From a virus (Duplodnaviria > Caudoviricetes), in the IMG/VR virus record IMGVR_UViG_3300031994_000062, positions 21,124 through 85,123 of that record: DNA of 64,000 nucleotides. One strand, 5' to 3'. Within the stretch, counting starts at the first letter, position 1. The number at the start of each line of letters is the position of its first letter. Positions 8,588 through 44,803 of this stretch are shown here, piece by piece. The position numbers and the translations under genes were made by a program. Under the pieces are notes generated by a model. It was not told the DNA's origin and did no database searches. It saw only the letters and a list, made by a program, of their open reading frames with translations.

Positions 8588-8995
8588 CTAATTCCTCCTT
8601 GCTAAAGCAGCCTGACTGCGTTCATTTTGATATAAATCGTTTAATTTGCACTGCATAATTTCGTCAAATCGCGCGATTTCCGATTCATCAATATATCCTA
8701 ATAGAAAACTAACAGCATCACGCATTTCTAATTCATCAAATTCTTCTGTTATATTATTATAATCAATATCTACATTCATATAGGCATTGATCAATGTCAT
8801 TCTATAAAGCAAATTTCTATATGCCGAATTAATATTAAAATCGCCATCTTTATCATATGTACTATCATAAATAATAGCTTCGCATATTTCACATTTTTTA
8901 TCGAATGGAATATAATCAACAACTTCCAACTCAATATCGTCAAATCCGGTATCTATATATTTCTCATATTGATCTATAAATTCCTGTGTAGTCAT
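8588..8995 (-). CDS. Hypothetical protein (paralog of 8032-8586)
   Basis: 135 aa, RBS AAGGAGG. Confidence 0.8.
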   Translation of the reverse strand: MTTQEFIDQYEKYIDTGFDDIELEVVDYIPFDKKCEICEAIIYDSTYDKDGDFNINSAYRNLLYRMTLINAYMNVDIDYNNITEEFDELEMRDAVSFLLGYIDESEIARFDEIMQCKLNDLYQNERSQAALARRN

Positions 8996-13699: not shown

Positions 13700-14297
13700 A
13701 TCTGTTGTTCATTCCTCCGTGACCATTTACTATATTTGGAGCCTCGACTGCGAATTTTAGAGTTCTACAATAGAACTTACCGTCAACTATATCTGGATAA
13801 TCGTTTGTAAGTTTTAACTGCATTCCTAAAGAGTTTGTCCAACAAAGAATATCCCTGATTAAATATGAAAGCAAATCTGTACGTGGAATACGATATGGCG
13901 TATCCATATCATCTTCGTGTACACAGCACATCACAACAATCTCTTGGTTTTTAATTACTTTATTGACATAGGAGACAGAAGAATCTCGAATATCAAACAT
14001 GATGAAATTCAAAACCTCTGTTTGCATATTGTTCAGCTTTAACCAAGGGACTATCTGTTTATGAGTAATTTTCTCATTATAATCCTCTATTTGGCGGCGC
14101 TTTTCCAATTCTTCCTCTGTAGGATTATCTGGATCAACATACTTATTAAGAGGTTTTTTCTGCTTCGTGCCTAAAACTTCTATAATATCTGGATCTTCTT
14201 TGAACATTTCTTCGAGTTTATATTTTTTATAAATAATATCGTTATTATGCTTATCTTCTAAGTCTCTTACGATTTTACTAATATCTCGCTGCATCAA
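13686..14297 (-). CDS. Tail completion/terminator-like protein
   Basis: 203 aa; function inferred from synteny only. Confidence 0.55.
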   Translation of the reverse strand: MMQRDISKIVRDLEDKHNNDIIYKKYKLEEMFKEDPDIIEVLGTKQKKPLNKYVDPDNPTEEELEKRRQIEDYNEKITHKQIVPWLKLNNMQTEVLNFIMFDIRDSSVSYVNKVIKNQEIVVMCCVHEDDMDTPYRIPRTDLLSYLIRDILCWTNSLGMQLKLTNDYPDIVDGKFYCRTLKFAVEAPNIVNGHGGMNNRYDVF

Positions 14298-14971
14298 ATC
14301 ACCTCCAGCTCAATAGAAGAGTAGTAGTCGCCATTAATATCTGAAACAGACAAGCGGAATTTCTTTCCGACCAACGACCCAGCTTTCGCAGGTTTTATCG
14401 CCACTACTAAATCGTCGAATTCCGTCACCGAAATTAAACCAACATAATAATTAACGTCATCGTTAGAAAATTCATTATCATTAATAAAAGAAATTTTCCA
14501 CTCTGGATTAATATTTTCAGCAAAGAAATTAACTCCAAAGTATGAAACCTTTCCGCGTTCCAAATGTTTAATATCTGTACCAGGCTCAAGTTCTCCGTTA
14601 TCATTTACAATATAAGAAGAAATAACACTTGAATGTTCTTCGTCTGGATTTTCAGATATAGGTACATCTACCTTAATGTTGCCTTCTTCTGTAAAATAGT
14701 CGCAAATCATCATGTCAATAGAATCACGCTTCTCGTTAAAATCATCTTGTTTGAGAGTTAACTTAATCATTCCACGAGGAGTCGTATCATCAACTTTAGT
14801 TACTTGATAACACTTAGGATCAACAGTATTAAATGTAATCATAAAGCGTTGATCATATGTAATTGTTTGATTGTTATAAAGACCGAGATTAACAAGATTA
14901 TTAATTCCGTAAACATTAACAACATCTGGAATCCAGAAATTTGTTAAGTTATCTAGGCTATACGAAATTTC
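14294..14971 (-). CDS. Neck/head-closure-like protein, exon 2
   Basis: Frame is open upstream of the track ATG: EISYSLDNLTNFWIPDVVNVYG...DQRFMITF. Joined to exon 1 gives 399 aa. Confidence 0.8.
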   Translation of the reverse strand, partial: EISYSLDNLTNFWIPDVVNVYGINNLVNLGLYNNQTITYDQRFMITFNTVDPKCYQVTKVDDTTPRGMIKLTLKQDDFNEKRDSIDMMICDYFTEEGNIKVDVPISENPDEEHSSVISSYIVNDNGELEPGTDIKHLERGKVSYFGVNFFAENINPEWKISFINDNEFSNDDVNYYVGLISVTEFDDLVVAIKPAKAGSLVGKKFRLSVSDINGDYYSSIELEVI

Positions 14972-14995
14972 CTATTGTGTTACTCAAACCACGCG

Positions 14996-15985
14996 TTAAG
15001 CGATTTGAGAATTATTTATAAATGGTTTAACATAGAGATCTTCATATATGTTATACTTTCTAATTAAATACATATCAGCGTCCTTATAAAGATAATCTAA
15101 TAATTTTTTAGCTTGGATTCCTCCTCCAATTGAAACTATCTTATTACTTTTATTCGGATGATAATAGATTGAACAATGAATTTTAAGCTCGTCTTCTATA
15201 AATTCCTTAAGTCCATCCATCATTAGACCAGATCCGATAAAACTGACATGCTTATATTTGGGATTTTTAGTAATATTACCGTCCCCATCTAGATAGCCCC
15301 TAATAAAATGCCGCATTAAACCACGATTTAGCCAAAACGGAAATTTTAAAATATGACTTTTACAAGGAACAACTCCACATTTATTTAATGAATTAGCCAT
15401 ATATTTGTTATGAATTCGCAACACATACGAATTCTGCACATTTCCTTTTTTAGATGAATTATCTACAAGCACCAATGGTTTATCATAATTTAATTCTTTA
15501 TTTATACTTTCGAGGATATGTTTGTCTCGCTCCTGTAAACTTAACGTAATAATATATCCTTTTTTAGATACATTTCCATCAGCATATAATAATCCTAGTA
15601 TATATGCTTTATTAGGAGTATCTATTTTATCAAAATATGTTTCATCTAAATGATATTTCTTATTAAAGTCAGTACGCTGTCGTATCTTAATCCCATTTGA
15701 CTTTAGAATATTCGAAATTACTTCATGTCCTATATGCATCTCTTTACCTATCTCTTTAATGGTTTTATTGTATATAGAATACATATTTATTACTTTGTCA
15801 ACTTCATCTTGAGATATTTCCCTATGCTGAACTTTTATTCCCATTCTAGTTAAAAAATTTCCAACACTTCCTGCATTTAGATTATATTTTTCAGCAATTT
15901 CTCTATTAGTAAATCCATCAAGTCTCATCTGAGCAAATTCATCTCCATGTTGTTTAAAAAACAATGCTGTTTCTGTTTTATTCAT
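14996..15985 (-). CDS. Intron-encoded LAGLIDADG homing endonuclease
   Basis: AYILGLLYADGNV and HFIRGYLDGDGNI motifs; N-terminal HTH repeats; ATG 15985 with RBS AGGAGG. Confidence 0.9.
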   Translation of the reverse strand: MNKTETALFFKQHGDEFAQMRLDGFTNREIAEKYNLNAGSVGNFLTRMGIKVQHREISQDEVDKVINMYSIYNKTIKEIGKEMHIGHEVISNILKSNGIKIRQRTDFNKKYHLDETYFDKIDTPNKAYILGLLYADGNVSKKGYIITLSLQERDKHILESINKELNYDKPLVLVDNSSKKGNVQNSYVLRIHNKYMANSLNKCGVVPCKSHILKFPFWLNRGLMRHFIRGYLDGDGNITKNPKYKHVSFIGSGLMMDGLKEFIEDELKIHCSIYYHPNKSNKIVSIGGGIQAKKLLDYLYKDADMYLIRKYNIYEDLYVKPFINNSQIA

Positions 15986-15993
15986 ACTAATTC

Positions 15994-16080
15994 CTCCTAA
16001 AAATGTATAAAAAAATAAGACCATAATCGTCGCATTTAGGAGCTACGGCGAAACGGGAGCTACCCGCTGTCTGGTCTTAT
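15994..16080 (-). promoter_or_regulatory. Structured RNA leader with anti-SD loop, copy 1
   Basis: Stem AUAAGACCA/UGGUCUUAU; loop CUCCUAAA complementary to the RBS region UUUAGGAG. Confidence 0.7.
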
Positions 16081-16385
16081 TATCAACAGTTAATTTATAA
16101 ATAATTTTCTTATGCTTTCACATAAGTACAGACTATATCATCACCATATCTAAAAAGATTTAGGTGTCCTCCACAGGATCCACTTGGATCGCTTAGTCGT
16201 TGAACCTTTCCCTATTCGGGACTTGGCTGCTGATTGTCCAATCTTTATAATTTTCGACATTCACGTTTGAGCATTTCATCTCTGCGTTGTAGTTTATAAA
16301 GCTCTAAGGAGTTTCCAGCAATTCAAAGGATTCATTTGCATAATTTCTTATTGCAACGGACAATTCTAACTAAATAGTTAGTTTC

Positions 16386-16907
16386 ATCTAACCACCGCCC
16401 TGAGGTGTAGCTATTTGCATTTCGTATACATCCAAAGGATTTCATGATTTGTCCTTTCCATATCCATTTGAGTTCATAATTTGCTTTCAATACATTGTAT
16501 CTGACATAACTACGACTATCATCTCTACCAACTATAATCCACCATTGTGTTCTTTCATCAATTGGTTGAGACCAAGGATTTTCTAATTGTTCTTCAGATA
16601 AATTTATATCAAAATCAACATCATCTGGAATTATAATGTATGAACCCACGGGATAATGGACGCCTGGACGAAACTGAATCATGTAATCAATGGCATCCTT
16701 CAAAATAGAAGGAGTTGTGTGAACTTGATACTTCGCGTCTTCAAATTTCCACCCATCACGGGTCAAAATGTAAACACGCTTATAATTCGGATCTCTTGTA
16801 AAAGTCCGATCTATAATTACATCTGACTGATTTTTCTTAACTTCAGCCAGATTTCGCCCATGTCGTGTAAGATAACTTTTATATGCCGTGATATCCATAG
16901 ACATCAC
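16386..16907 (-). CDS. Neck/head-closure-like protein, exon 1
   Basis: 174 codons ending ...RNANSYTSGRWLD at the intron boundary. Confidence 0.8.
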
Positions 16908-17233
16908 ACCTTTATCTTGTCGACCAACGCATGGGCATCTAAAACAAGCTTTCTATATGCATGATAGTCGAATTGCTCCTTGGAACATTCTAGATGTGCG
17001 GCTTCGAGATTTGACATAATACCGACAATTTCCGGCGGATAGAAGAGAAGAGAAGATAATCCATTTATCCTTCTCATAAGACCTTCAAAATACTTGTCAA
17101 AATCAACATGAGAATATTCATCGGCAGATTCAGGATCCTTATAAATCAATAACCAATGAAGTTCACTGTGGAGCCGCTTTTTAAATAACTCGAATTGTTC
17201 AGGGTCAAAATATCCATATTTCATATCCATCAC
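16904..17233 (-). CDS. Hypothetical virion-module protein
   Basis: 109 aa; probable ATG 17230 overlapping the upstream TGA. Confidence 0.75.
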   Translation of the reverse strand: MMDMKYGYFDPEQFELFKKRLHSELHWLLIYKDPESADEYSHVDFDKYFEGLMRRINGLSSLLFYPPEIVGIMSNLEAAHLECSKEQFDYHAYRKLVLDAHALVDKIKV

Positions 17234-17354
17234 CTGTAATCCTCGATATAGTCGTTATACAGATACCCGCGATCTCGTATCATTTTGCGCTGTTCATTCT
17301 TAGTAGATTCGTATAAAGCGCGAATTTCCTTTAAATGACTTGACTCTGAATAGA
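17230..17354 (-). CDS. Head-tail adaptor-like protein, exon 2
   Basis: Not in the ORF track. (F)YSESSHLKEIRALYESTKNEQRKMIRDRGYLYNDYIEDYR*; joined protein is 154 aa. Confidence 0.8.
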
Positions 17355-17362
17355 CTGTTATA

Positions 17363-18376
17363 TTACTCATCCAGATCGTTATTCTGGGTGAGATTTATAT
17401 GACTTTTTGCATAAGATTTACAAAAATTAATATAATACTGATATTTCCTATCTAATTTCATTTCTGCATCCTCATACATCCATGATAAAAATTGGTAAGA
17501 AGATTTATTTCCAGATGTTTGAATAATAAATGTATTATCACCGCATTGCTTTGGATGCTTTATATTATTTTTACAATCCATACTATTTAATATTTTTGAT
17601 AAATGTTCACACATATCTAATGTTCCAACAGTTTGAGTAGAACATTTATTATATTTTTGATAATAATAGATATTTCCATCGCCATCAAAATAACCACGAC
17701 AAAAATGTCTAATTAATTCTTCTGGTAAAAACTCTGGAAACTTTAACTTTAAACTTTTAGCCTTAATTAATCCTAATTCTTTTAAAACATCAGACATATA
17801 AGGATCATTAATAACTAGAGCATATTGATTTTTATGATTATTATTTTTATTATTTAATGGAATAAATCTAAGAGGTCCTTCATATTCTAACTCATTTTTA
17901 ATTTTATCAAGAATAGCTTTATCTGATTCTTGTAAAGACAATGTAATAATATGAGGTCTAACGCTGTCGTAATGGTTACATCCATCTGCATAAAGAAGGC
18001 CTAATATATACGCCTTATTAGGGGTATCAATAACATCAAAATAATGACTATTTCTCTGATATTTTCTATTAGAAATCGTATATCCTTTTCTTGGAATTCC
18101 TTCTCTGTCTATAATATTATTAACTCCAGTTGCAGAAACAACAGTGTCGTAGCAAATGTCTTTTTGTTTCTTGTTTTCATCTTTATATAATTTAATCACT
18201 CTATTATTTAATTCTTTTGAAAAAGTGTTGTACTTTCTATCTATCTGATTATTTTTTAATACAATCCTTAGATCATGTTCGTTAGAATTAAATTCTTCCA
18301 TCATTTTTTCAATATCCTCAGTTTGTAAATACATATCAATAATATTTTTAATTTCATCTTCGCTAAATGTTTTCAT
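17363..18376 (-). CDS. Intron-encoded LAGLIDADG homing endonuclease
   Basis: AYILGLLYADGCN and HFCRGYFDGDGNI; ATG 18376 with RBS AAGGAGG; stop 8 nt before the terminal G. Confidence 0.9.
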   Translation of the reverse strand: MKTFSEDEIKNIIDMYLQTEDIEKMMEEFNSNEHDLRIVLKNNQIDRKYNTFSKELNNRVIKLYKDENKKQKDICYDTVVSATGVNNIIDREGIPRKGYTISNRKYQRNSHYFDVIDTPNKAYILGLLYADGCNHYDSVRPHIITLSLQESDKAILDKIKNELEYEGPLRFIPLNNKNNNHKNQYALVINDPYMSDVLKELGLIKAKSLKLKFPEFLPEELIRHFCRGYFDGDGNIYYYQKYNKCSTQTVGTLDMCEHLSKILNSMDCKNNIKHPKQCGDNTFIIQTSGNKSSYQFLSWMYEDAEMKLDRKYQYYINFCKSYAKSHINLTQNNDLDE

Positions 18377-18386
18377 ATACATCATC

Positions 18387-18474
18387 CTCCTTAAAAATGT
18401 GTATAAAAATAAAGACAGTAATTTCAGCATTAAGGAGCTACTGAAAAACGGTTTGCAACCCGCTGTCCTGTCTT
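18387..18474 (-). promoter_or_regulatory. Structured RNA leader with anti-SD loop, copy 2
   Basis: Stem AAGACAG/CUGUCUU; loop CUCCUUAA complementary to the RBS region UUAAGGAG. Confidence 0.7.
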
Positions 18475-18791
18475 ATTTACAGTGTCATATAAATTTTCTT
18501 ACGTTTTCACGCAAGCATAGACTATATCATTCACCATATACATTTCTGCACTTAGGAGTCCTTCACTTCGGGAGACTTCTCCCTACGAGTATTTCAACTC
18601 ATAGTCGTTGAGGACGACCCTCTTCAGGTCTTTCCTGCTGATTTCCCAATACATAAACTTTTCAAACCATTGCCGTTTAGATATATCTCAATCTTCCGTT
18701 TTGGTATTATGTCTCTAAGGGAGTTCCAGCATATTCGAAGGAATACACTACGCCGTTTCCGAACGTAGCGAACCGTGAGCATAAGCTCTCA

Positions 18792-19131
18792 ATTTTTCTT
18801 CTTTAGAACCATAAGTCTGGTAGATGTGAGTAAGGCTATTAACCTTTGGTTTCAGCCATTCAATCACCATTCCCAACGCTAAAATTTCGATTACGAAGTC
18901 CGTATCCATATCTTCGTCTACCTGGTAAGCCATCTCAAAGGTAAGCTGACCAGAATCGACATCGCAATCATATGTCGAAAAAAGTCGCCTTACATAAGGT
19001 TTGGAACCAGCAGACTTGATCCATCCACCCATGAATTCCGTAATCTCGTCGTCAGATAATTCCAGAAAATCATAGGCATCAATTTTTTGTAGAAAGCTTG
19101 AATAGATATCGTCAAATTCGAGTGCAATCAT
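18792..19131 (-). CDS. Head-tail adaptor-like protein, exon 1
   Basis: 113 codons + 1 nt; EILALGMVIEWLKPKV; two genes after the major capsid gene. Confidence 0.75.
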
Positions 19132-19142
19132 TTAAGATCACC

Positions 19143-19703
19143 TCATTTAGTTAAAACCTTAAGATTGAGTCCAAACTGTTCGTCAATAACTCTAATCTTT
19201 TCGATACTGTCTAATGTTCCGTTATCGACAGCAGTAGAAGCGATGCTCTTGAAATTCTCTTTAGCTCTAGGCGGCAGAGCATCAATAGCCTTCTTCATTT
19301 CGTCAACCGGAAGTTTGATAATATCCTTAAGGTCACTATCTGTATAGGATTCATCGTAGAACTTCTGGACAATTGGAAATTCGTCGATGAAATCTTGGTC
19401 TTCAATAATGAAGAGCGGCCCGAACACAAAATCAGATCTTGTCCGAACCGCAATCACCAAATCTCTATATTCAACTTCATATTCATGTCCATAAGCATTC
19501 CATTCATATAACATTCCGGTTTTCTTGCCAATCATATAAAGGCCGCCGGGTGTTACGGATCTACATAAAATCCCATCAGTTTCTTTGAATTCCCGCTTTT
19601 TAACAACGGGTTCGGTTTTCCTTGTAGCCGCCGTTTTTGGAGCTTCTGCTTTAATAGCTTCTTCCTTTTTCGCAGCGGTAGTTTTTGTCATGCTTCTAGC
19701 CAT
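19143..19703 (-). CDS. Hypothetical protein following major capsid gene
   Basis: 186 aa, RBS AGGAGG. Confidence 0.8.
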   Translation of the reverse strand: MARSMTKTTAAKKEEAIKAEAPKTAATRKTEPVVKKREFKETDGILCRSVTPGGLYMIGKKTGMLYEWNAYGHEYEVEYRDLVIAVRTRSDFVFGPLFIIEDQDFIDEFPIVQKFYDESYTDSDLKDIIKLPVDEMKKAIDALPPRAKENFKSIASTAVDNGTLDSIEKIRVIDEQFGLNLKVLTK

Positions 19704-19725
19704 TTCCTTTTCCTCCTAATATATC

Positions 19726-20859
19726 TTAGTTAGTGGTTGTCCACTTACCAAAGTACTGACCAATTCTGGTAACAACACCAAAATCTCTCTGAACTTCATA
19801 TTTCATGAGGTCGGAGATATTAGCGTTAGCTTCGCCACGTTCGGTGATTTCGTTGATCAGAGTCTCGCCGCTATCTGCGAATTCTACAAGCTTATTATCC
19901 TTACCCCTTGCGAAGATATAAAGATCTTTATCGCTATAGAAATGCTGACCAACCTGATTACGAACGAATCTCTGCGGAATCTCTACTAACAGAGTTCCTT
20001 CATAGTCGCCAAGTCTACCTGTATGAGCAACAGATTCCTTCTGAGACGGAGCAATCCAATGAACAGCACCATCGTAGAAAGCGTTAAGCTTCTTAAGAGC
20101 GTTCTTTGTACCGAAAATAGCAACTTCAGAGTTGCCATTAGCGATGGATACGTTTGTGATGATTGTATCAAACTGATCCTTTGTAGCTGCGGCAAGATCG
20201 CCACTGTCAACGAAGCCTTCTGTTACAGGAAGCTTCTCAGCTGCGCCTGTAATATGCTCATAGATAGTATCTTGAATCTGATGCTGGAATGCTACTGCGA
20301 TAGCTGCAACAAGAGCAGACCAGTCACAGTCACCAAGAATATAACGGTCAATGTCGCCACCAACAGCAACTACATAACGAGCCAGCGGAATGGTCACATA
20401 CTGACCTCCACCTAATCTCTGCAGAATGTGATCATGGTGTGTTCTACCAGCTTTGGCAACGTTAAGAATAATATCTTCGTCTGTCCAGAACTGAGTCTCA
20501 TCACCAAGTGCAACATTTCTTTCGTTAACGAGTTCCTGGAACCATTCGGAATCCTTAAGTCCAGTGTCAACGATAGCATCAACGGTTTCCTCAATCAGGC
20601 GGAAGAATTCCTTGCCATGATCTTCGTAAGCACGCTGACGATCTCTCTTTGTAGCTCTCTCATCAAGCTCAAACACACTTAATACCAGATCATGAAGTCT
20701 TTTCTCGGCTTCACGCTTAGAAACAACCTTACCGGTTTCATCGTCATAAATCTCATGACCCATACCAAGGTCATACATAAGATTCTTTACTTCTTCGTAT
20801 TCGGTTTCAAACTTATTGAATACGTTCATGATATGCTGTGAAAATACTAATTTATGCAT
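19726..20859 (-). CDS. Major capsid protein
   Basis: 377 aa, strong RBS, codon bias typical of high expression, downstream of the protease/scaffold gene. Confidence 0.8.
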   Translation of the reverse strand: MHKLVFSQHIMNVFNKFETEYEEVKNLMYDLGMGHEIYDDETGKVVSKREAEKRLHDLVLSVFELDERATKRDRQRAYEDHGKEFFRLIEETVDAIVDTGLKDSEWFQELVNERNVALGDETQFWTDEDIILNVAKAGRTHHDHILQRLGGGQYVTIPLARYVVAVGGDIDRYILGDCDWSALVAAIAVAFQHQIQDTIYEHITGAAEKLPVTEGFVDSGDLAAATKDQFDTIITNVSIANGNSEVAIFGTKNALKKLNAFYDGAVHWIAPSQKESVAHTGRLGDYEGTLLVEIPQRFVRNQVGQHFYSDKDLYIFARGKDNKLVEFADSGETLINEITERGEANANISDLMKYEVQRDFGVVTRIGQYFGKWTTTN

Positions 20860-31192: not shown

Positions 31193-31275
31193 CGCCAATA
31201 CCATGATTCGAACGTGGACAACTCGAAAGTTGGACAGATTAGCAATCTGCTGAGATACCATTACTCCATATTGGC
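31193..31275 (-). tRNA. tRNA-Ser(GCU)
   Basis: GCCAATA/TATTGGC acceptor, GCAGA-TTGCTAA-TCTGT, long variable arm, TTCGAAT T-loop; one C-A mismatch in T stem; no CCA. Confidence 0.85.
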
Positions 31276-31281
31276 ACATAA

Positions 31282-31366
31282 CGACAAGCGAGGGACTTGA
31301 ACCCCCAGTGCCCGAAGGCATCACCGGTTTTCAAGACCGGCTCCTTACCAATTAGGATAGCTTGCC
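31282..31366 (-). tRNA. tRNA-Ser(UGA)
   Basis: GGCAAGC/GCTTGTC acceptor, CCGGT-CTTGAAA-ACCGG, long variable arm, TTCAAGT; no CCA. Confidence 0.9.
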
Positions 31367-31372
31367 TAATAA

Positions 31373-31445
31373 AGCCCCAGGTAAGACTTGAACTTACAAC
31401 CTGCTGATTACAAATCAGCTGCTCTGCCAATTGAGCTACTGAGGC
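31373..31445 (-). tRNA. tRNA-Thr(UGU)
   Basis: GCCTCAG/CTGGGGC acceptor, GCTGA-TTTGTAA-TCAGC, TTCAAGT; no CCA. Confidence 0.92.
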
Positions 31446-41344: not shown

Positions 41345-42280
41345 ACAAAAAAGGGGCATATGCCCCTATATAAAAGTTCAAAAAAGATCACCCCTGATCC
41401 TTGAACGAATTTCCCGACACAGAGTCGAACTGTGTTTCTTCCTATATAAATAGGACCACGCAGGAAGTAGGAGAGAAGAGTAGTAATCTACTCCTCGGTA
41501 CTCCTTTTAATCCTTTGCTAACGCTGAGATTATGCGTTTCGCAGAAAAAACTTTACGAGCATTATGAGTTCTCTCGTTATCCACTTACTGCCGTTTCCGC
41601 ACAATAAGTATTCTCTCATGGCTGCCTTTTTTATAGTGTGGCGATTCACTATTTCTACAAAGCTACTCTACCTTCCCTATTCCGTTAACGCTGCCGCGCT
41701 ATAAATTCCCGCTAAGAAAACCGTGCAAGGTCCAATAAACTTATCAGAGTCTTGCGAGACTCCTCAAAGACACCATTACATTGCTGCTGGTGTATTAAGC
41801 CACTTTCACTTTGCATAGGCACAGACTTTCGCTTTAATAATTTGATCATCTGTCTATTGTAAATAAACCCTGTATCCAATGGTTCTTTTTATTTATAATA
41901 TGTTTATATACATCCTTTGATTACGTGCTGCGCCAGTGGCTTCGTAAACTTTTGATCTACAAAATACCACACGCAACCATGCTTTCGGCCCGTTTGCCTA
42001 CTAACGTCTCATAAGCTAATGGGAAATCCCACTCACTTAATCAATGGATACCGCCCTCGCGCAACGTACACTTGGACTGTGTGCATCCTCCTGATTCACC
42101 TTCGCATATTCGTAAGTTTGCATGAGCTATCCAGATTGCGGTCCGGAAACCTTCTCTCAGCACTTGCCGTTGATCCGGCTTATTGCTCCATACTTCATAT
42201 GTTATATCCGCGCGGGATTTATATACCAGCACGAATCGCCGCCTTTTGAGCGACAGGCATGTCAGTTCTGCTTGAATTGA
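41345..42280 (-). ncRNA. Candidate large structured ncRNA (about 930 nt; GOLLD/ROOL size class)
   Basis: No credible ORF; higher GC than flanks; many hairpins with G-U pairs and GNRA loops; bracketed by a promoter-like site and a terminator. Confidence 0.6.
41347..41367 (-). terminator. Intrinsic terminator closing the non-coding region
   Basis: AGGGGCATATGCCCCT palindrome followed by a T run. Confidence 0.75.
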
Positions 42281-43008: not shown

Positions 43009-43931
43009 TCACATTTTCTCTTTGTTTTCTTTGTTTTTGGAAAAGCACTTCAATAAAGCATCCGGATTTAATTCGTATAAAACTTTTAAAAGAATCGAAC
43101 GATTCTTATATAATTTACCTTTCATTTTGGCTTGATTGTTTCTGGTGTTTGTAGTAACACCAAAACCTCTTTTTAATAGATAAGACATGAACCCAAGATA
43201 ATTTTTTGATATACCAGTTTTACGTAAATCTTCGATAAGATTATCAAAATCATCTCTTAATACCAGCGTCTCTTCATACATGTTATCAATGTCATCAATA
43301 CGGCTTCTGACATCGTTATATAAATCCATAGAATACTTGCTTATTAATTTTTCCATGCGTTTAGATGTGTTCATTTTTCTGGAAGTAGAAAGCTCAAATT
43401 CATTAAAAAATTCTTCAAGTTTCATTCCATTTCTATTATAGTTAGCTCTCTTGAGTTTTAAATTATAAAGATAATTCATGGGACACATAATATCCAAATT
43501 AATTTTCTTCTTATCAAAACCCTTTCTAACACCTAACCAAAATGCTGGATATAAATTTTTGTCAACATCTATAAGCACTTTAAGCCGATTTATTTCTTCC
43601 ATTAAATCCATATCATACGATTTTTTCGCGCTATCTATACTCACCTGAGCAAGTGACGCAAGAATACATACGGCATCATAATACTTTCTATCTGGAAACG
43701 TATAAGTATATGACAAAGCTATCTGGGCTAAATTTGATGACAAACCGATACTCAACTGAGAAGCAGCAAGTTTATTATCAACGATAGCAAAAGAGTTCAT
43801 CGATGAATCGTATTTATTTTTTTCTTGTGGAATATTATTCACAACAGTCGGATGATTTATTTGACAGTATTTTGCGTGTTCTACTATAGGAGTAAAATTT
43901 GTTACGTAAATTGAATCTGAATCTTGATCCG
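43009..43931 (-). CDS. YonO-like single-subunit RNA polymerase, exon 2
   Basis: Starts (S)DQDSDSIYVTN, the DxDxD catalytic motif; LSIGLSSNLAQ and SIDSAKK. Confidence 0.85.
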
Positions 43932-44803
43932 CAATTCATAATTGTATAGGCTCTTTATCCTATACCCTCAAGTCACCTTGAGATTGGACTATATCTTTAC
44001 CATAGCTTTCGCCTTAGGTATCTGGCGCTCGTGTCGGGATTATTGGTATCCATCCTCACCCATTAGTCTCTGAAGTTTCTTGTCTACTTTTGCTGGAATT
44101 CGACAAGCTTACCTGCTGATTGAGTTAATTTAATTGTTTAATCTATATGTTTCCAAGTTTTTCTGTGACAAATATTTGCATATGTAGAATGTAAGTTTTT
44201 GTAATCTTTAGCGTGAATCATTTCTGGATGATCAAGTCTTAAAATATCGGCTATTTTCATACCTTCGTCGTATTTTCTTCTAATTTCTCTGACTTCCTCT
44301 TCTGTAAAATTAGCCCTTCCATTATTTACTCCTCGCGACGATTCACAAACCACTTCATAATTATTGTCTACAGTATATTGAATATTTTCGGCATGAGTGA
44401 TCCATTCTAAATTGTCAGCGTCATAATTCATCCTATTAAAATCTTTATGATTTACTTCGGCACCTTCGAAATATCCCGGTACCCAAGCATGTGCGACGTA
44501 CAAATGTACTGGAACTCCGCCACCAAAACAAGGATATCCGTCAGAATTGATATGTATCGTAGCTGGTTGAACTCTTCTTATTGGATTAAACGCTGAACCA
44601 TCTTTCGCAACATATTTTCCGCGACCTCTAAGTTCTACATATCTATATACCTTAGGCTCATATTTTTTGCCATCTTCATTAATAATAATTTCATCTTCAA
44701 ATTTTCTTTCTTCCATAGTTCGCCTTTCTTTCCTTATAACTTTCCCAGCAATTCACCAGATATTTTTTGAACTGAGTTTCCTCAGAACCGGGCCGGTATA
44801 TTA
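43932..44803 (-). mobile_element. Group I intron 4 (872 nt) with HNH ORF between P and Q
   Basis: P GAATTGCTGGGAA, Q AATCAGCAGG, R TCAGAGACTA, S GATATAGTCC. P1 UGGGU/GCCCG and P10 CGG/CCG support the junction GGG T|TAATA...AATTG|CG GAT. Confidence 0.92.
44138..44716 (-). CDS. Intron-encoded HNH homing endonuclease
   Basis: VHLYVAHAW...EVNHKDFNRMNYDADNLEWITHAEN. Confidence 0.88.
   Translation of the reverse strand: MEERKFEDEIIINEDGKKYEPKVYRYVELRGRGKYVAKDGSAFNPIRRVQPATIHINSDGYPCFGGGVPVHLYVAHAWVPGYFEGAEVNHKDFNRMNYDADNLEWITHAENIQYTVDNNYEVVCESSRGVNNGRANFTEEEVREIRRKYDEGMKIADILRLDHPEMIHAKDYKNLHSTYANICHRKTWKHID

Follow-up and report, generated by a model that had tools for sequence, protein, structure and literature searches.

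A conserved three-way-junction RNA with a Shine-Dalgarno pseudoknot in the leaders of phage homing-endonuclease genes

Introduction

RBS-sequestering hairpins control I-TevI, I-TevII, I-TevIII, segB and mobE, and at I-TevI the purpose of the masking is to keep ribosomes off the intron structure so that splicing proceeds, td splicing being impaired once the hairpin is unlocked (PMC2988022, PMC3073962). Here we analyse a leader RNA found in a 64,000-nucleotide stretch of phage DNA (hereafter the window), which, like the T4-type hairpins (I-TevI, I-TevII, I-TevIII, segB and Aeh1 mobE), is a cis leader structure that pairs with the Shine-Dalgarno (SD) sequence of intron-encoded or free-standing genes. 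The end of the I-TevI ORF overlaps intron structure, and an overlap between the ORF and a P9.1-like helix is seen here too (PMC2988022, PMC3073962). The T4-type hairpins are simple and lineage-specific, whereas a conserved three-way junction with a pseudoknot is here common to unrelated nuclease families and distant phages; they also harbour a late promoter inside the hairpin, whereas here no conserved internal promoter was found and TATAAATA lies upstream of the motif in free-standing copies. The analogy with RBS occlusion at T4 I-TevI, drawn in the first-pass annotation of this locus, holds as a mode of action.

Other described systems share individual features with this RNA. In the Ll.LtrB group II intron the LtrA protein binds RNA and occludes its own SD, protecting ribozyme folding (PMC3073962). 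SD occlusion limiting an intron-encoded protein is common to both cases, but at LtrA a protein binds the RNA, whereas the occlusion here would be RNA-RNA and the downstream proteins are too diverse for one shared RNA site. In the preQ1-II and SAM-II riboswitches the SD is one strand of an H-type pseudoknot formed with an upstream loop. Their SD pseudoknot is alike, but in the present motif a three-way junction encloses the loop-bearing hairpin, no Rfam family matches, and nucleases lie downstream. The GIR1 lariat-capping ribozyme is a catalytic RNA of about 180 nt found in eukaryotic rDNA twin-ribozyme introns. It is comparable as a structured RNA domain lying in a group I intron directly 5' of an endonuclease ORF and governing its expression; GIR1 is catalytic, however, whereas nothing indicates catalysis here and the motif also occurs outside introns.

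The comparison with Rfam proposed in the first-pass annotation was run with Rfam 15 at the gathering threshold and at E <= 5 and left the motif itself unmatched, the only matches being to group I intron, tRNA and GOLLD families. A literature search of incomplete coverage returned T4 literature and general reviews and no published description of the motif, and the family is apparently undescribed so far. What is known is the kind of regulation; what is new is the three-way-junction and pseudoknot architecture and its spread across nuclease families, genomic contexts and distant phages.

Results

The genes in this part of the window lie on the minus strand, and the motif occurs there twice, each time in a group I intron and 5' of a LAGLIDADG ORF (Table 1). 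The first-pass annotation had described a three-stem RNA upstream of the first of these ORFs; every element that it listed is present on the minus strand, and the fold holds across the family described below. The 8-bp complement that it read between a loop and the RBS region of copy 1 is exact: CUCCUAAA in loop 3 (16042-16035) is perfectly complementary to UUUAGGAG (16001-15994), and over 2000 shuffles of loop 3 an 8-bp match to the 31-nt leader arose in 0.05% of cases for copy 1 and 0.35% for copy 2. The minimum-free-energy fold recovers motif P1 and hairpin 2 of copy 1 (z = -2.1). Hairpin 3 exists as described, but not in the UCGC/GCGA register, the family alignment favouring a 6-bp UCGCCG/CGACGA stem with one C.A mismatch. 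The compensatory changes claimed for copy 2 are found in motif P1, where CCA/UGG becomes CAG/CUG, and in the SD pairing, where CUCCUUAA stands opposite UUAAGGAG, and the hairpin 3 stem differs as well; the claim does not extend to hairpin 2, which keeps CGG/CCG, followed by a G.A mismatch and a different top. Finally, the location given as between P7 and the endonuclease start is right in that the motif is intronic and 5' of the ORF, but can be stated more precisely as after P9 and inside the loop of a P9.1-like helix.

Table 1. Positions of intron, leader and ORF features in the window
Feature	Positions	Strand	Details
Group I intron 1, 1414 nt	14972..16385	-	5' splice site after U16386, terminal G 14972
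P9.1-like long-range helix, 5' strand	16093..16106	-	just after P9 hairpin; pairs with 15023-15010
P9.1-like helix, 3' strand	15010..15023	-	within last codons of nuclease ORF
P9.2-like hairpin	14983..15009	-	ORF stop codon 14998-14996 in loop; 11 nt before 3' splice site
Leader motif copy 1	16015..16080	-	66 nt, three-way junction; covariance model R1 91.7 bits, R2 80.3 bits
Copy 1 motif P1, 9 bp	16080-16072 / 16023-16015	-	
Copy 1 J1/2 GACAG	16071-16067	-	
Copy 1 hairpin 2	16066-16054	-	CGGG-UAGCU-CCCG
Copy 1 J2/3 UU	16053-16052	-	
Copy 1 hairpin 3	16051-16027	-	stem 16051-16046/16032-16027
Copy 1 loop 3, 13 nt	16045-16033	-	
Copy 1 anti-SD CUCCUAAA	16035..16042	-	in loop 3; read directly from sequence
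Copy 1 J3/1 UUA	16026-16024	-	
Copy 1 U-rich linker	16002..16014	-	from motif P1 to SD partner
Copy 1 pseudoknot partner UUUAGGAG	15994..16001	-	overlaps SD; last paired nt 8 nt 5' of ATG
Copy 1 SD AGGAGG	15998-15993	-	7 nt, then ATG 15985
HTH-LAGLIDADG homing endonuclease ORF, 329 aa	14996..15985	-	Pfam LAGLIDADG_3, E = 2e-8
Group I intron 2, 1437 nt	17355..18791	-	codon split between U and UC, terminal G 17355
Leader motif copy 2	18410..18476	-	covariance model R1 89.2 bits, R2 71.8 bits
Copy 2 anti-SD CUCCUUAA	18437-18430	-	
Copy 2 pseudoknot partner UUAAGGAG	18387..18394	-	likely start ATG 18376
Second LAGLIDADG ORF, 337 aa	17363..18376	-	Pfam LAGLIDADG_3, E = 1.4e-8

Relatives of the motif were collected by protein identity, by sequence patterns and with covariance models, R1 having been built from seven copies; E-values of R1 and R2 are rough. 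The first-pass proposal to search with a covariance model for further copies led to a family extending far beyond the window, with about 60 loci and 44 distinct copies, carried by intron 2 of the same phage, by intronic relatives of the nuclease, by IMG/VR contigs and by the cultured Enterocloster phage CB457P1. A protein search with LAGLIDADG ORF 1 returned 1288 relatives, and in all 12 of the intronic ones picked by protein identity alone (68% to 36% identity) the motif is present, its distance to the start codon being the same throughout. Scans with sequence patterns yielded copies from IMG/VR and metagenome contigs: a pattern of junction plus hairpin 2 matched 50 IMG/VR loci, and R1 matched in 46 of 48 newly fetched loci (48 matches, two loci being hit twice; 35 distinct sequences), while a loose DNA pattern gave almost only chance matches. 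Among the pattern-found copies, many are unrelated in the sequence of motif P1 and hairpin 3, and several G+C-rich ones occur. Close-clade loci share the same structural-gene module and adjoin genes of the YomW, YomU or YonB families (SPbeta-like phage); they come from rumen, bovine and sheep-gut samples, and the window stretch itself is present only in sheep-gut DNA runs and in no RNA data set. Two loci, L290 and L309, contain two motif copies each.

In line with the first-pass description of the element as portable, the motif stands in front of LAGLIDADG nucleases, GIY-YIG nucleases with NUMOD domains (L273, L275, L284, L301, L311 and L315), DUF7487, DUF1376 and unnamed proteins, in both intronic and free-standing settings. 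Within introns it precedes LAGLIDADG and GIY-YIG genes, as in Enterocloster phage CB457P1, where it lies in a group I intron 5' of a gene annotated as intron-associated endonuclease 1; outside introns it precedes GIY-YIG, DUF7487, DUF1376 and unnamed genes. Free-standing copies follow ordinary genes, beginning a few nucleotides past their stop codons (L273, L284, L290 and L298), and no RF00028 match was found in these four loci. Conversely, the motif is absent from 118 phage candidate group I intron loci collected by the shared P7-P9 string GATATAGTCT...GAAAATT (R1 was run on 118 and R2 on 94), and phage group I introns therefore do not carry it as a rule. R2 found no motif at the other nuclease genes of the window, nor any match in 151 genomes of the order of a Lachnospiraceae MAG, where only few candidates were scored per genome. 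A near-identity search of 14000-20000 against GenBank phages gave no match, and protein patterns in IMG/VR retrieved only two free-standing relatives of ORF 1, both motif-less, and none of ORF 2.

The fold was examined in an alignment of the 44 distinct copies. In this alignment, which was fitted to the model and so favours the structure, 96.8% of stem cells are paired, two-sided changes occur in 16 of the 17 stem pairs (206 cells), none of 500 shuffles reached the observed pairing and no slid register came near it; a seven-sequence MAFFT alignment made before any model gave the same structural result. G.U pairs in all three stems fit the sense RNA only, and the structure thus belongs to that strand. 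The junction strands GACAG, UU and UUA, together with the first U-A pair of hairpin 3, are retained in 43-44 of the 44 copies, and in AT-rich and GC-rich phages alike; because part of the sample was retrieved by patterns that fix the junction and hairpin 2, invariance in that part is by construction, and the protein-identity subset is the unbiased one. The hairpin 2 loop is mostly UAGCU, a sequence that the second search pattern required, and at least three other loops occur among copies retrieved through protein identity or solely with the model, while loop 3 retains only its anti-SD core across copies. The first-pass annotation had emphasised conserved loop bases; the loops in fact vary, with at least four versions in hairpin 2, and the near-invariant part is the set of junction strands. 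Two further candidate features, a loop-loop pairing between hairpin 2 and loop 3 and the repeated GUAGCUCC as a protein site, were rejected, both being absent from diverged members. Extension of motif P1 by flanking A/U runs is possible everywhere, but these runs are of low complexity and lack informative covariation. At the level of comparative sequence analysis, a three-way junction of motif P1, hairpin 2 and hairpin 3 and its conservation are established.

Pairing between loop 3 and the SD was scored in each copy as the longest contiguous Watson-Crick duplex between the loop and the leader up to the start codon. Homologs maintain this pairing: 43 of the 44 copies have a contiguous duplex (42 at 5-11 bp and one at 4 bp), with 4-12 nt between its end and the start codon. 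It takes in the SD's 5' portion together with the variable bases preceding it, and the variable part changes in step on both strands, giving more than 20 sequence versions. Apart from the CUCCUAAA/UUUAGGAG and CUCCUUAA/UUAAGGAG pairings of the two window copies, these include CCUCCUA/UAGGAGG, CCCUAA/UUAGGG, CUCCUGA/UCAGGAG, CCACCU/AGGUGG, CCGUAU/AUACGG and an 11-bp form; a further version, GUUUCCUC/GAGGAAAC, was read by eye in L300, which stands outside the 44-copy alignment. Cognate duplex lengths sum to 304, against 218 +/- 7 on random re-pairing, and none of 20,000 permutations reached 304; likewise, among nine close-clade classes the duplex energy is -10.7 kcal/mol for cognate and -8.3 for non-cognate combinations (0 of 20,000). 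The loop-SD pseudoknot proposed in the first-pass annotation for the window copies is thus upheld, its cognate pairs beating every permutation, and by the same comparative approach the pairing and its conservation can be regarded as demonstrated. Its geometry is that of an H-type pseudoknot in which stem 1 is hairpin 3 (about 6 bp), the first loop measures 1-3 nt, stem 2 is mostly 6-9 bp (4-11 overall), and the long third loop consists of the motif P1 return strand and the linker. The exception is the clade of L301 and Enterocloster phage CB457P1, in which the paired segment stops 20 nt short of the ATG and lies 5' of the nearest SD; pairing is weak in L299 (4 bp strict, 6 with wobble) and in L293 (5 bp).

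Both window introns join their exons in frame, and intron 1 has an RF00028 core (16381-16109, 87.9 bits), is preceded by a U at its 5' splice site and ends in G. The junctions were placed with tblastn against uninterrupted homologues: that of intron 1 falls between LD and EIS (L004:3589-4803), and that of intron 2 reads KEEK-F-YSESSH (homologue in L257). At the 5' splice site of intron 1 (16386-16360, minus strand) no canonical U.G pair with an internal guide sequence was identified, and the hairpin that Rfam aligns as the intron's P1 lies wholly within the intron. For intron 2 the relaxed threshold of E <= 5 still gave no Rfam core, yet visual comparison shows conserved core segments similar to those of intron 1, and RF00028 may under-report relatives of this type. 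Intron 2 (17355-18791, minus strand) has a P7.1/P7.2-type insertion, its exon junction and core strings marking it as group I.

The 3' ends of these introns bring the ORF and the intron structure together. In intron 1, 16106-16093 is a perfect 14-bp complement of 15023-15010, and all 14 related introns have a P9.1-like helix of this kind, with differing, covarying sequences (AUUUAUAUGAC/GUCAUAUAAAU, GUCAUCUAAU/AUUAGAUGAC and AUUAAAUUAUGCA/UGCAUAAUUUAAU among them). In all 14 its 3' strand overlaps the ORF end or stop codon. In the two window introns the stop codon is 8-24 nt away from the 3' splice site, within the following hairpin or shortly after it, and motif and ORF thus occupy the loop of the helix together. 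Because the final codons of the ORF contribute to this long-range helix, translation and splicing would be at odds: a ribosome reaching the end of the ORF would be expected to unwind structure beside the 3' splice site.

Variants of these introns were also encountered. At the insertion site of intron 1, L006 (9600-10150, minus strand) contains the same intron with a deletion in the nuclease ORF that runs from the SD to the last 13 codons, and keeps the leader motif and the P9.1/P9.2 parts, which looks like a snapshot of homing-endonuclease loss. In L271 a related intron, inserted at a third site that is flanked by YomW- and YomU-family genes, bears a near-consensus sigma-70 promoter (TTGACA, 17 nt, TGnTATAAT) in its upstream part (1000-1080). 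The window holds in addition a short, ORF-less group I intron without the leader motif (43966-44187, minus strand; RF00028, 50.9 bits), which splits another gene (ORFs 44138-44716 and 43009-43842).

Discussion

The motif most likely acts as a cis-acting translational repressor in the leaders of homing-endonuclease genes. In the mechanism that we propose, a 7-bp closing stem and two hairpins would form a three-way junction with the near-invariant GACAG, UU and UUA core, so that the loop of hairpin 3 presents the anti-SD; the RBS, transcribed about 35 nt later, would then pair with loop 3 (mostly over 6-8 bp, in the range of 4-11) to give the H-type pseudoknot, which would exclude the 30S subunit and restrict synthesis of the nuclease to a low or conditional level. 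In intronic copies, ribosomes would thereby be kept out, allowing the intron to fold and splice and the interrupted structural gene to be expressed. Repression, its effect on splicing and its relief are inferred, whereas fold, pairing and their conservation are shown. The rationale of splicing protection cannot apply to free-standing copies, where the likely benefit is a low nuclease dose.

A simple hairpin would suffice to mask an SD, and the near-invariant junction thus implies a function beyond what repression explains. The first-pass annotation had suggested autoregulation by the endonuclease, which is unlikely since unrelated protein families follow the same RNA junction. A conditional switch, possible but on balance rather improbable, would extend the repressor reading without replacing it: the junction would bind a common trans-acting factor, be it a host or phage protein, the ribosome or S1, an RNase or a small molecule, whose binding stabilises or opens the pseudoknot and so gates nuclease synthesis. 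GACAG, UU and UUA are kept in nearly every copy whereas both loops and 16 of the 17 stem pairs change, and a near-invariant unpaired core beside an SD pseudoknot, a necessary though not sufficient feature of a riboswitch, is what the alignment contains. This conservation could, however, simply reflect a fold that aims loop 3 at the 3' tail; moreover, no Rfam family matches even at relaxed threshold, no covarying mutually exclusive structure was seen, and with nucleases rather than metabolic genes downstream no ligand suggests itself. More specifically, and with considerable doubt, the junction core might be the binding site of a common signal (a metabolite or ion, a ribosomal or host protein, or a phage factor), or a new catalytic core, the motif serving as a sensor that times translation of selfish nuclease genes from many unrelated families; if this were true, it would be a class akin to riboswitches and devoted to the control of mobile elements in phages.

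Relief of the proposed repression might alternatively come from transcription, as it does for I-TevI, I-TevII, I-TevIII, segB and mobE, where promoter bypass is documented (PMC2988022). A promoter between the anti-SD and the SD, read as a TATNAT box after motif P1, would yield transcripts that lack the anti-SD and are translated, read-through transcripts being silent. Such a -10-like hexamer (TATAAT, TATTAT or TATATT) is indeed found 2-3 nt after motif P1 in 12 of 18 close-clade members, 10-13 nt before the GGAG of the SD (or GGG where there is no GGAG), and L264 has CTGACA as well, at 17 nt. The box is missing, however, from both window copies, where a promoter scan flags nothing, from their nearest relatives and from GC-rich members, no -35 is conserved in the close clade, and such hexamers are frequent in AT-rich sequence. 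In free-standing copies, furthermore, a promoter-like box precedes the complete motif: a perfect TATAAATA, the T4 late-promoter consensus, stands 5-10 nt upstream of motif P1 in six of them (in L290, L293, L275, L286 and L315) and is rare within their own loci, and a 7/8 match is found in two more, at distances of 6 and 10 nt. A bypass of the T4 I-TevI kind seems unlikely, though it may operate in part of the close clade. If TATAAATA is a T4-type late promoter, the transcript begins at motif P1 and carries the complete mask, which would need another unlocking route; taken with the invariant junction, the upstream box keeps the idea of a trans-acting trigger alive.

That the motif is instead a P9.1/P9.2-type domain aiding ribozyme folding, with incidental SD complementarity, is highly improbable: it does lie within the 3' peripheral region of the intron and is retained in the L006 intron with its deleted ORF, but that deletion looks recent, the ORF end still being present, the loop-SD pairing covaries, and free-standing copies without a nearby group I intron (L273, L284, L290 and L298) contradict such a role. 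We likewise see hardly any chance for a catalytic RNA processing the nuclease mRNA, or for an intrinsic terminator or pause site formed by motif P1 and a U-run, since the ten invariant junction nucleotides resemble what small ribozyme cores show but match no Rfam model (hammerhead, twister, twister-sister, pistol and hatchet gave nothing at E <= 5 in 14000-20000), and the UUUUAU that follows motif P1 in the AT-rich clade is absent in GC-rich members, motif P1 closes a branched structure, a terminator scan was silent, and termination within the intron would cut the host gene short of its second exon, 1 kb further on. As to a similarity between the motif and the homing site, of the kind seen in the I-TevI operator, none was found by eye.

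The T4 intron endonucleases are the textbook case of RBS masking by ad hoc hairpins; here, LAGLIDADG, GIY-YIG and other genes, whether intronic or in free-standing cassettes, have one conserved and covarying RNA architecture in common, which occurs in AT-rich gut and rumen phages as well as GC-rich ones. This spread points to a shared regulatory module moving between mobile nuclease genes, extends the known phage cis-regulatory RNAs by a well-supported family, and aids the annotation of true start sites and intron anatomy in metagenomic phages. The cultured pair of Enterocloster bolteae and phage CB457P1, whose genome (OP172753.1) carries the motif at about 8650-8720, offers a tractable system, which could address how nuclease expression is set against splicing of essential structural genes and what the junction recognises.

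Other structured RNAs of the window include a full-length GOLLD RNA at 41521-41979 (minus strand; RF02032, 205 bits, model positions 1-416) and, about 10 kb from it, three tRNA genes at 31193-31445 (minus strand).
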